Below, piece after piece: positions 28,621 through 64,000 of a stretch of DNA of 64,000 nucleotides (position 1 is the first letter of the stretch; each line of letters begins with the position of its first letter). The notes under the pieces are model-generated. The model was not told the DNA's origin and made no database searches. It was given only the letters and a program-made list of their open reading frames with translations. The stretch spans positions 19,468,001 through 19,532,000 of the forward strand of contig CM119381.1 of assembly GCA_051294905.1 (NCBI GenBank). The letters are read 5' to 3'. This DNA is from Botryllus schlosseri. Lineage: Eukaryota. The translations under genes and the position numbers were made by a program.

Positions 28621-30393
28621 AGCTAGGATATATCGGGGTTAATTACAGGGTTAACTTCAGCTCATAAGGCTATATGCTGCGACATTGCGTCGCACGCCCT
28701 ACATGTCGCTGAATCCATGCACTGCAGGTGGTCCTACTACTAACGCTGTAGGTTTGAAAGGCTATAGAATTAACAAAAGCAACTCACACGTCGGTCTGAG
28801 CCATCGTTACAAGACCAGATACGATGCAAACTGCAAGGAAAGAAATTCGTCAACGATAAAATATAACGATAAAATATCGTTGACCGTCCACAACCTTCCC
28901 GAGTCTATCGCTTATATAAGGAGTTTCAAGGTCGCGGTGGTCCCATTGTCCGGCACAAAAGAACAACGTAGCCTTTTGTTCCTCGAGCTCTAGTCGCACT
29001 ACAATAGATTTACGATTTGGTTGTATTCGGAAATATGAAGAAATATCGAGTACCGGGAGCCTATATTAGTCTATCTTGATGTATTTAATAGTTGCAACTA
29101 TACATTGTGAGGAAACCGACGCCCCGTCAATCATCTGATTGCTGATATGCCAAGGACAATGCTGTGCACCAGGAGAATATGTACCGGTAATTTCACAAGA
29201 ACAGGCATCACAATAGCCCTATAGAGCCCTAAAGAGTTTGCAAATATACTGCGATACAATGACAAAGGAAGCAGAACCGATCCATCAACACATCGCACTA
29301 TTCAAGTTTGAAGCGTATTCTGCAAATGTTAATACAAATTATAATATAAAGAATAGAAGAATGGTACAACTAGCAAATTCTCGAATTCCAATCCCAATGT
29401 GGTTTTAGAAAAGGGGAGGCAACCACCCAGTGGCGTAGGAGCATATGCTGCCCCTGGCTTTCGTTAAAAATGTTGCCCTATCAGTAGACTGCAGCAAATC
29501 TTGAAATAGTTTCATGTTCAAGCAATCTTTTCAATAAAAATTATTAGAAATAATGTGCCGCGTCTCAGAAGTTCTATATTGCTGGAGAAAAATCCCACAC
29601 TGCCTCTGAGATTTTGAAAGGACATTGAAAAAACCTTCCCAGACATTTCATATTTCCATCATGATGATGATTTTTAATCATGCGGATATAGTAACGCGAA
29701 AAATCCTTCTGTCACTCGCAACATATTGTCGAAAACAACCACCGATCATATTCCTAACAAATTAGCTCGTGATTAGCCATCTCTCCGTGCTGCGTGCAGT
29801 GTGCAGCCTCATTTTGCCTCCCCTTGCAGCCTGTCGTCCCTGGCGCAGAGACAGAACCGCCAAGTGGCTGCTACGCCCCATGACATTTTTATGATCCACC
29901 ATATATTTTGTTAACGTAAACTAATCGCACAAAATCTTAACACCGTATTCGATTCAACTTGTCCGTATTGCTCTTCGACTATGAAGTTAATATATGGGCC
30001 TTATGAGGGAGGGCGCCATGCCATGATATTTTCTAAAACGGGATGTTCGAGTAAACAAAGCGCATTTACATATCAATACTAGGTACTTGTGAAATAAGTG
30101 CCCGGAGGTATAGGCGGCAACAATTGTTGCACCATAAAATGGGTGTGTAGTAGGATAGTAAGTGTTTTACATGTACATTGAAATAAGGGTGAAAAAAGCA
30201 CCAGGTCTGGTCAGGAACAAGTGAAAAAAATAATCCCTCCATAAGAATAACACGGGATTAAAATACGAGAGAGTCAGTACATATGAAACGCCAAGAAAAA
30301 AGGGGGTTTGATCTGCTAAAGACGGTGGGGAGTTGATCGACACCACATGTCGTATTATTTACTTGCGCAGATACGTGGGAAAGAACATACAAT

Positions 30394-31320
30394 GTGTTGG
30401 GTTTGATCAAATCGGGTGCACTACTCAACACACGAGATTGTGTGCTATTTCTAAGAAATCACGGGTTGTTGGTGCGGAGGATGAAATGCAAGCGATGTAG
30501 AAAAACGATGAAAGAGGAAAATACGTCGACAGGCGATGATGGGTTTAGGTGGCGATGCAACCCCTGCGATACTACGGCGACTATACGGAAACACTCGATA
30601 TTCGCAGGAAGCAAGGTAGAACTTCCCAAATTGTTAATATTATTCTACTTTTGGGCCCATGACGCGTTGCAAACCCAAATTTCACATGAAGCTGAAATTA
30701 GTCAGCGTTCAACGGTCACCTGGTGCGGCCGATTGCGAAAGCTTTGTACGGCCGAATTTCACAGGAATAAGCGACGTCTGGGAAATGAAGGCGGCTGTGT
30801 GGTCATTGATGAAACGCACTTAGCTAAGCGCCGGGCTGCCTCAGACAAAGGACCAGCCGTTAAAGCCATTTGGGGGTTCGGTGGCATAGATAAAGCTACC
30901 GGAGAAATGTTCATTGAGATTACTTCCGACAGGACTGCCGAAGTATTTCGAAAACTCATAGTAGAAAATGTGGCAGAGGGGTCCACAATTCTAACCGATG
31001 CCTACCCTTCCTACAGGGGTATAGAGAGCTGGGGGAAGGGTTATATACACGGTGTAGTGGACCACTCCCGTTGGTTTAAGGACCCTCGGACAGCTTTTTG
31101 TACTAATGAAATCGAGGGGGCCTGGGGCCAGCTTAAATATCATTTACATAGATCTCGTGGTTTAGCACGCCATCTTTTGGCCGATTATGTAGGGGAGTTT
31201 TTGTGGAAACGTCAACATCAAAAGACTGACCGATTCTTGGCACTCCTGCGCACCATACACAATGATCCACAGTATAATTTTGACAAGTTTGAGGGGTCTC
31301 CTGTATTACCACAATTGTGA
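30394..31320 (+). CDS. Merlin/IS1595-family DDE transposase 1
   Basis: N-terminal Zn-ribbon CKRC...DGFRWRCNPC, then IRKHSIFAGSK, and catalytic-type motifs VIDETH, TILTDAYPSY, TNEIEGAW. There is no in-frame ATG; a splice acceptor ends at 30370 (TTACTTGCGCAG), so the start is probably in an upstream exon. Confidence 0.9.
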   Translation: MLGLIKSGALLNTRDCVLFLRNHGLLVRRMKCKRCRKTMKEENTSTGDDGFRWRCNPCDTTATIRKHSIFAGSKVELPKLLILFYFWAHDALQTQISHEAEISQRSTVTWCGRLRKLCTAEFHRNKRRLGNEGGCVVIDETHLAKRRAASDKGPAVKAIWGFGGIDKATGEMFIEITSDRTAEVFRKLIVENVAEGSTILTDAYPSYRGIESWGKGYIHGVVDHSRWFKDPRTAFCTNEIEGAWGQLKYHLHRSRGLARHLLADYVGEFLWKRQHQKTDRFLALLRTIHNDPQYNFDKFEGSPVLPQL

Positions 31321-31449
31321 ACCCCGCTATAAGGTTCCAGGACGGAAATGACGACATCTGTTATTTTGTGTTTTTACAGACGTTAGTCTAGGGCTAGTGC
31401 GCGATTATATTTAATTTATGACGTGGCGAGAACCACCACTAAACGTACC

Positions 31450-63564: not shown

Positions 63565-63834
63565 ATGCTTTCTAAGACGACCATCGTAAAACTTGTACTT
63601 GTCGTATCCTTGCTTTCATCGTCTGTATCTCTCCTGATAATATTAGCAGCAATTTATCTGCACGTATCACCTGGAGCGCTTTCTAATCTGTTGAACGTAT
63701 TTTTGGGATCTAATAGCAGCGAATCCACTGCTTACGTCCAACCCACGAATACGCCGCAGAGATCTACAATATATTTTAACGTGTCTTCGCCTGATCTACT
63801 ACCTTCTGTCAACAGTACTTTATCCGGTCAATAG
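63565..63834 (+). CDS. Small single-pass membrane protein
   Basis: MLSKTTIVKLVLVVSLLSSSVSLLIILAAIYLHV hydrophobic N-terminus; S/T/P-rich remainder with NSS, NVS and NST sequons. Confidence 0.6.
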   Translation: MLSKTTIVKLVLVVSLLSSSVSLLIILAAIYLHVSPGALSNLLNVFLGSNSSESTAYVQPTNTPQRSTIYFNVSSPDLLPSVNSTLSGQ

Positions 63835-63842
63835 GAAGGGCA

Positions 63843-64000
63843 ATGCGAAGGATGTTGAAAGCATTCAAAAGGAAAAAGTCGTCAGAAGCAACGGATGAAC
63901 TCAAACAAGGTATTACCTTGCTTAAAGCGACACAAAAACGCCATGAAGATGTACGGCGACAAGAAAGACAACTGGCTAAGGACGTGGCTGAACAAACAGA
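63843..64000 (+). CDS. ESCRT-III / Snf7-family (CHMP6/Vps20-like) protein, truncated by the window end
   Basis: MRRMLKAFKRKKSSEATDELKQGITLLKATQKRHEDVRRQERQLAKDVAEQT aligns without gaps to the CHMP6 first helix as I recall it (KAILQLKQQRDKLRQYQKRIAQQLERERALAR), about 12 of 32 identical; only 52 codons are visible. Confidence 0.55.
   Translation, partial: MRRMLKAFKRKKSSEATDELKQGITLLKATQKRHEDVRRQERQLAKDVAEQT

Follow-up and report, generated by a model that had tools for sequence, protein, structure and literature searches.

In a 64,000-nucleotide stretch of the Botryllus schlosseri genome (assembly GCA_051294905.1, contig CM119381.1, positions 19,468,001 to 19,532,000, forward strand; G000:C11:19468001-19532000 in our numbering), here called the window, we describe a large, recently active mobile element of an apparently undescribed kind. 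It almost certainly constitutes one mobile unit, very probably depends on reverse transcription and is probably an envelope-carrying reverse-transcribing element in which a Merlin transposase and short terminal inverted repeats (TIRs) take the place of integrase and long terminal repeats (LTRs). The first-pass annotation of the window had proposed a virus-like element, either an endogenous DNA virus or an infectious giant transposon, integrated through a Merlin transposase. The mobile, multi-copy, env-carrying unit with Merlin-type ends was borne out, whereas the DNA virus had to be given up, since gag, protease, reverse transcriptase (RT), RNase H and a primer-binding site (PBS) are present. 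Genome-wide matches were searched across the 495-Mb assembly, and L031 denotes the stretch beyond the window end (right of 64000).

Ends and Copies of the Element

The sharp junction recognized earlier at 30082 is a true terminus. The first 400 bp of the element have 40 genomic matches, and the 39 others start at this position or no more than about 11 bases from it; Merlin-1 and env follow the left end in 28 of 29 other fetched loci with 84–96% identity. Homology among the copies stops 270 bp after the pol stop codon, which marks the right end 6.4 kb beyond the window end and gives a total length of 40,291 bp. Both termini are imperfect 23-bp inverted repeats (GG..CC); a perfect inverted terminus was not found within 114 kb, the real TIR being imperfect. 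Target-site duplications (TSDs) were evaluated for those 23 of 30 fetched left ends that could be paired with a fetched right end, and were exact over 8 bp in 19 pairs and over 9 bp in one, whereas one of the remaining pairs matched at 7 of 8 positions and two had no TSD.

Pairing by coordinates assigned a right end to 47 of 51 left ends, corresponding to the window copy and 46 more. The earlier annotation had named the lack of a right terminus and of any second copy as grounds for abandoning a single element; as the terminus and 46 further paired copies exist, those grounds fall away. The RT lies within the TIRs in 31 of the 47 pairs, 30 of which carry RT and Merlin-1, and 25 of these 30 also contain Merlin-2 (median length of the 25, 39.9 kb). 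Two diverged subfamilies (RT identity 93% and 90%) likewise bear TIRs and exact 8-bp TSDs (two of the three diverged copies probed), and five copies differ by 0–0.4% over the left 1.85 kb. Neither LTRs nor internal copies of the ends were found, only one 66-bp piece of the leader region being repeated. A nested LTR retrotransposon as the source of gag-pol was ruled out by the 30 copies with both RT and Merlin-1, and also by an 8-kb copy that joins the left end straight to leader-gag-pol within a single 8-bp TSD.

Several further observations concern the copies and their surroundings. At G000:C5:18373634-18412484 a related opposite-strand element seems to be nested in an RT-less copy, and the right ends at G000:C5:10285872 and 10299821, 14 kb apart, have identical TSD and flank (segmental duplication or assembly artefact). 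By eye, the left end of a diverged copy (L085:237-290, G000:C13) contains an inverted pair 42 nt apart, like inner TIR halves head to head and possibly a relic junction. Downstream of the element (L034-L035, ~101–106 kb on the window scale), two cysteine-rich host open reading frames (ORFs) on opposite strands were labelled EGF-repeat-like, also by eye.

Gag, Pol, and the Control Region

The features of the element are compiled in Table 1. The ORF at 63843, taken initially for ESCRT-III-like, encodes the coiled coil with which gag (948 aa) begins; the CCHC knuckle of gag was detected with E 5e-4. The statement that no polymerase or capsid is visible holds for the window, but a polymerase of retroviral type and a capsid-like region lie just beyond it. 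The protease of pol gave a weak Pfam match (E 0.2) and contains a DTG motif, and the gag-pol overlap includes the heptamer A-AAA-AAC, which we take to be a -1 frameshift site. With Pfam, no integrase was found after RNase H; Tpt1 follows, and then the stop 270 bp before the right end.

Table 1: Features of the element (window positions; L031, beyond the window end).
Feature	Position	Strand	Remarks
Left TIR	30082..30104	+	23 bp, starts GG, 17/23 match right end
Phase-1 splice acceptor	30357..30370	+	5 codons before conserved start of Merlin-1 frame
Merlin-1 DDE transposase	30371..31320	+	First ATG 30481; homology to Merlin-2 runs upstream of ATG
Env-1	31450..33966	+	Signal, furin sites 480-485, hydrophobic 484-512, long helices, transmembrane 767-803
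Env-2	34053..37502	+	N-terminal domain paralogous to Env-1, Ser/Thr-rich stalk, C-terminal membrane segment
Non-coding gap between gene blocks	37503..48007	.	10.5 kb
Cargo ORFs before Merlin-2	48008..54792	+	ORFs 48008, 49429, 50132, 52472, 53133 (LRR), 54238
Merlin-2 DDE transposase	54861..55808	+	38% identical to Merlin-1
Cargo ORFs after Merlin-2	56008..62124	+	56008, IAP, 58865, 59326, 59888, E2, 61055, 61675
IAP	57011-58711	+	3 BIR + RING (Pfam)
E2	60457-60912	+	Pfam
Two ~56-bp tandem repeats	62974..63085	+	Upstream of leader; also in permuted family
Spliced-leader copy, GT donor, Sm-type motif	63225..63287	+	Leader 63225-63248, Sm-type motif 63280-63287
PBS	63518..63535	+	18/18 complementary to host tRNA-Ile(AAT) + CCA
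89-aa ORF	63565..63834	+	Hydrophobic N-terminus, between PBS and gag
gag	63843..64000, ends L031:2689	+	948 aa; coiled coil, capsid-like helical region, CCHC knuckle
pol	L031:2644-6102	+	Beyond window; protease, RT (YIDD), RNase H, Tpt1/KptA
Right TIR	L031:6350-6372 (G000:C11:19538372)		Beyond window

Upstream of gag, an exact copy of the host 24-nt spliced leader is followed by GT. Its identity as the host leader follows from reads on an 8-kb deleted copy, in which template-switch-tagged 5′ ends are stacked and then run into many unrelated sequences; the read pile at the leader was rejected as element expression, as it represents host trans-spliced mRNA. The leader is tabulated as the 'Chordata 1' spliced leader (PMC3795323), in keeping with an ascidian host, and the Sm-type motif at 63280 is that given for the Ciona SL RNA (PMC7986045). 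This motif varies in other element copies. Leader plus GT has 250 genomic matches at up to one mismatch; 42 of 100 listed matches, mostly chosen for nearness to element coordinates, were used. Exact leader plus GT was located 4.0–6.3 kb upstream of at least 28 of 69 RTs, the most diverged of these being 63% identical, with a chance expectation of ~0.0007 each (the 69 being 88 RT matches minus 12 short fragments and 7 distant matches at 28%). The leader copy would represent the RNA start (R region), and the ~56-bp repeats may be enhancer-like.

Three observations touch on the leader. About 350–440 sense-strand single-cell reads cover 62974-63220 just upstream of it; with a 3′-tagged library, these could mark where long transcripts or cargo transcripts end. 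A leader copy away from the listed RT matches (L093, G000:C1:13984856-13985116) has a short downstream motif in common with the element leader, and could be an SL RNA gene or a further relative. A second locus (L094, G000:C3:5093664-5093924) looks like a chimeric retrocopy, with parts that are presumably U6, poly-A, the U1 5′ end and the spliced leader.

Genome-wide, the PBS motif yielded 43 exact and 13 one-mismatch matches, and after subtraction of five taken as tRNA genes, 45 of 51 lie inside paired ends. It is present in 29 of 30 RT-bearing and in 15 of 16 RT-less copies. At G000:C12:26016839-26160031 we noted a tandem array of ~37 tRNA-Ile-like matches, mostly 2-3 kb apart.

Linkage, Permuted Gene Order, and a Probable Circular Intermediate

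The 69 RT matches comprise 51 with a same-strand Merlin gene upstream, seven with Merlin 2.24–2.29 kb downstream and then env (among them G000:C3:616227, C1:24298300 and C12:25765685), and 11 without. Nearly all env matches (52/53) lie within 5 kb behind a Merlin gene, and the linkage of RT and Merlin persists to 58–63% RT identity. In the one permuted copy read across this joint, the pol stop precedes the Merlin acceptor by ~90 nt with no TIR pair between. Merlin-2 lies upstream of the leader in two of the seven permuted copies, and in one that was read a homolog of cargo ORF 54238 precedes Merlin-2. Two permuted copies have a control region that matches the one in the window, with repeats, leader and PBS-like site in place. 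In the permuted family (L087:588-605, G000:C3), the site at the PBS position starts with TGG but is not the tRNA-Ile site, which may reflect the use of another primer.

Both orders can be obtained from leader-PBS-gag-pol-transposase-env-cargo by circular permutation. They point to a probable pararetrovirus-like circle, which RT would copy from a permuted RNA and the transposase would insert at the TIR junction. As an alternative, the element might be reverse-transcribed and integrated by the transposase without an obligatory circle, its RNA coming from tandem or colinear copies and the permuted copies being rearrangements or a separate LTR-like family. Compatible with this, a head-to-tail TIR junction has no match in the assembly, no back-joint (circle junction) is among the 15 listed of 78 read joints from four runs, and in five of the seven permuted copies a second Merlin gene is not apparent. 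Nor were the ends of these seven copies found, so that a tandem or rearranged origin may account for them. Nevertheless, we consider integration without a circle unlikely: the ends cannot be restored from an RNA that is colinear with the provirus, since 33 kb separate the PBS from the left end and the termini have no direct repeat, no tandem copies were seen in the assembly, and the permuted family retains repeats, leader and PBS-like site, with cargo upstream of the leader in the copy read. A read joint that resembled an empty site was rejected as evidence of polymorphism, its flank being a high-copy repeat.

Probable Dependence on Reverse Transcription

Ratios of nonsynonymous to synonymous substitution (dN/dS) were 0.047 for the RT end and RNase H (23 of 29 loci) and 0.087 for Merlin-1 (28 of 29 loci), compared to 0.24 for Tpt1 and 0.26 for the 5′ part of env, all calculated against the window copy as one common reference and not independent. 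RT/RNase H and transposase are under purifying selection. Merlin-1 is absent from 15 of 16 RT-less copies, and in all five examined RT-less copies RT-RNase H was lost internally. As the RT-less copies keep the PBS, integrated DNA appears to re-enter the RT cycle. For 20 pairs of ends (one right end misaligned), left and right distance matrices correlated with 0.69, compared to 0.77 and 0.87 for halves within a region, and the left and right trees conflict for at least one copy with support 0.96/1.0. The conflict fits template switching; the mosaicism could instead be due to gene conversion.

These data also bear on a purely cut-and-paste giant Merlin transposon that captured a retroviral gag-pol-env, with the RT as a passenger or in another role. 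All integration signatures are Merlin's and two transposases are present, and a hAT-like insert and a long non-coding gap would be tolerated more easily in DNA transposition. But RT/RNase H is more constrained than the transposase, all but one of the 16 RT-less copies retain the PBS and all but one are without Merlin-1, the linkage holds to 58–63% RT identity, and in other data sets the Pols with Tpt1 and no integrase group as a single clade on a long stem. We therefore regard exclusive cut-and-paste as quite unlikely; occasional cut-and-paste may take place alongside replication by RT. An endogenous large DNA virus integrated via Merlin in the manner of Teratorn is hardly credible. The IAP, E2 and LRR cargo, the intronless ORFs and the 40-kb size would suit it, but both ends are mapped, DNA-virus core genes (PolB, major capsid, terminase, helicase) were not detected by Pfam in the 18 window ORFs, gag and pol, the unassigned cargo ORFs encode 131–286 aa, and retroviral core genes are present.

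Besides the junctions and the permuted-copy ends that were not found, a number of results weigh against an envelope-carrying element that is copied by RT and integrated by Merlin. The window copy itself is one of the two pairs without TSD. The 11 Merlin-less RT matches include all four at 46–50% identity, and for a third diverged family (RT 63%) ends were not found in the stretches probed of one copy. RNA depth over gag-pol was 0–2, in 6% of one run. No polypurine tract could be singled out among five purine runs and one poly-A, the leader copy could be a fossil head, and a 40-kb RNA genome would be very large. A fold comparison of the gag core gave retroviral or retrotransposon capsids as 10 of its 14 best matches, but with Z 5.0–5.9 (tool threshold 8) and a model of pLDDT 59; Foldseek on the gag core gave no match, and an atlas search with the capsid region no usable match. 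Env had no Pfam/HMM or PDB match, and its atlas neighbours are mostly class I fusogens with weak scores of 0.88–0.90. The identity of envelope and capsid is weakly supported.

Proposed Replication Cycle

The integrated copy would correspond to a circle that has been cut open where pol and transposase meet, at the TIR junction, and the closed circle would read leader-PBS-gag-pol-[TIR junction]-transposase-env-env2-cargo, equivalent to the retroviral layout gag-pol-IN-env. The transposase would excise the element or join its ends into the circle, on which Pol II would start at the spliced-leader copy and generate an RNA slightly longer than the unit, as in caulimoviruses. Gag would package this RNA, tRNA-Ile would prime a first strand of ~290 nt that jumps to the short 3′ repeat, and the new circle would be integrated by the transposase with an 8-bp TSD. 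The co-oriented genes may be resolved by host SL trans-splicing or by the leader's own donor, Tpt1 may modify nucleic-acid ends, and the IAP, E2 and LRR cargo would dampen cell death and immunity. Env-1 and Env-2 would carry particles between cells; whether particles are infectious we judge to be about evenly balanced. The same even balance applies to the most far-reaching form of the proposal, an infectious animal pararetrovirus with a ~40-kb circle, a leader-mimic RNA start and a Merlin-based switch between episome and provirus similar to temperate phage att, which would represent a new virus family.

Transposases, Envelope Genes, and Cargo

The co-oriented array noted before is evident from 18 ATG ORFs of at least 130 aa on the plus strand and none on the minus strand in 30082-64000, compared to two and none in the 30-kb host flank. 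Both transposases are of the ISXO2/IS1595 (Merlin) type with D-D-E motifs (PF12762, E 2e-10 and 1e-18; NF033547), as annotated initially, and Merlin-1 is presumably the integrating enzyme. The codon that carries its phase-1 acceptor is the same in all 30 left ends and, judged by eye, in the three diverged copies L072, L085 and L091. No convincing candidate for an exon upstream of this acceptor was found in the left end, and none of 85 phase-1 GT sites in the 89-aa ORF, gag and pol was shown to be conserved as a donor for Merlin-1; joining the spliced leader to the acceptor would give a stop in the Merlin-1 frame. In the 100 nt before the 18 ATGs, an acceptor-like score of our own design reached 9.3, compared to 7.2–8.1 in controls (0/1000).

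The two glycoproteins are paralogous as proposed (E 5e-11). Env-1 fits a class I fusion-like glycoprotein by its predicted features; one relative was found, and the single-sequence model of Env-1 (pLDDT 46) was excluded from the fold search. Env-2 may be attachment-like. Within the gap downstream of Env-2, which the earlier annotation had passed over, we observed a perfect 147-nt tandem duplication (38802-39096) and a nested non-autonomous 1.95-kb insert (39954-41900) with exact 8-bp TSD, which from its ends we assume to be hAT-like. The spacing between left end and Merlin-2 is 21–25 kb in most long copies.

Pfam agreed with the initial assignments of IAP, E2 and LRR, and gave a weak Bcl-2 match for ORF 52472 (E 0.009). 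The three gene families left unnamed earlier are real paralog sets (50132/54238; 52472/56008; 58865/59326/61055/61675). Conservation of the cargo is deduced from the positions and spacing of Merlin-2 and from one locus. Before ORF 61675, a 66-bp, 80% copy of 63144-63209, which is just upstream of the spliced-leader copy, was noted at 61553-61617.

Relatives and Known Systems

Other public assemblies also contain Pols that have Tpt1 but no integrase, with 36–46% identity, and no integrase family was detected in the related Pols P0001-3, P0074 and P0225; in one related Pol from another data set (P0225/P0074) an Exo_endo_phos domain follows Tpt1. Among metagenome contigs, two of eight loci are close relatives, both shorter than 5 kb and hence without gene context, and viral contigs searched with pol and env contained no relatives. 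In a quick RT tree of 57 rows, calculated from the best 55 of 153 eligible proteins and without labelled references, the Tpt1-bearing Pols group with the window Pol (support 99, long stem) apart from the integrase-bearing matches. The best PDB match of the RT is CaMV RT (8R0S, E 1e-18), followed by 'Pr125Pol' chains (2e-13), presumably foamy virus, and Ty3; the likeness to Caulimoviridae is a ranking of PDB matches.

The element is not a member of Merlin, LTR elements, Kuafuorterviruses, Caulimoviridae, DIRS or Teratorn. DIRS/Ngaro elements likewise pair an LTR-type RT with an integration enzyme other than integrase, and they have a circular intermediate, which for our element is probable. They use a tyrosine recombinase and are not known to have a protease, a tRNA primer or a TSD. 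In contrast, our element has a DDE transposase, protease, PBS and 8-bp TSD, and Pfam detected no tyrosine recombinase family in the ORFs scanned.

Merlin elements, defined by GG-ended TIRs and 8-9-bp TSDs with a published TIR range starting at 23-24 bp, resemble the element in their ISXO2 DDE transposase, short GG-starting TIRs and TSD length (PMC8101967). The element differs by its 40 kb, gag, pol, env, PBS and cargo from these single-gene class II transposons without RT; 'reverse transcriptase' does not occur in that survey. Caulimoviridae also have protease-RT-RNase H without integrase and a single non-repeated control region, as well as circular DNA and terminally redundant RNA, which for our element are both only deduced; they stay episomal, in contrast to an element with an animal host, env genes, a transposase with TIRs and TSDs, and Tpt1 (PMC11363490). 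Errantiviruses and env-bearing Ty3/gypsy elements are alike in the gag-pol frameshift overlap and PBS, and possibly in an F-like env (PMC13524379), and Burro giant retrotransposons in exceeding 30 kb with BIR and BCL2-like motifs (PMC6431247), but these have LTRs and integrase and the element has neither. PMC13524379 covers env-bearing Ty3/gypsy in tunicates and mentions neither Merlin nor transposase. In Teratorn (piggyBac plus alloherpesvirus, 41–182 kb), integration of a virus likewise relies on TIRs and a DDE transposase of foreign origin, but Teratorn has a DNA polymerase where our element encodes RT (PMC6431247). Kuafuorterviruses are likewise a deep animal RT lineage outside the named families, but have LTRs, integrase, 5-6 kb and IADD/VADD/LADD motifs, whereas the element has YIDD, no LTR and no integrase (PMC11673190). 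No description of such an element was found in the literature searched, which did not extend to Repbase Reports, to most of the subscription journals or to the supplement of the Kuafuortervirus paper; these may bear on novelty, and Repbase Reports or a supplement might list the element in part.

Conclusions

Mobile elements fall into RT-based classes with integrase, recombinase or endonuclease and TIR transposons without RT. The element in B. schlosseri joins the replication core of the former to the ends and enzyme of the latter, and this linkage is maintained over deep divergence. As standard pipelines would report a Merlin element and a broken Gypsy in its place, its relatives may be going unrecognized on a wide scale; since young copies exist, circles and transcripts can be sought. 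Further notable points are the possibility of an enveloped pararetrovirus in a host closely related to vertebrates, a ~40-kb retroelement, Tpt1 in Pol and the putative use of a spliced leader. Retroviral integrase is thought to be descended from a DDE transposase. Recruitment of such an enzyme as integrase seems to be repeated here with another superfamily, with its steps open to study, and if this is true, the element would provide a living model for such a recruitment.

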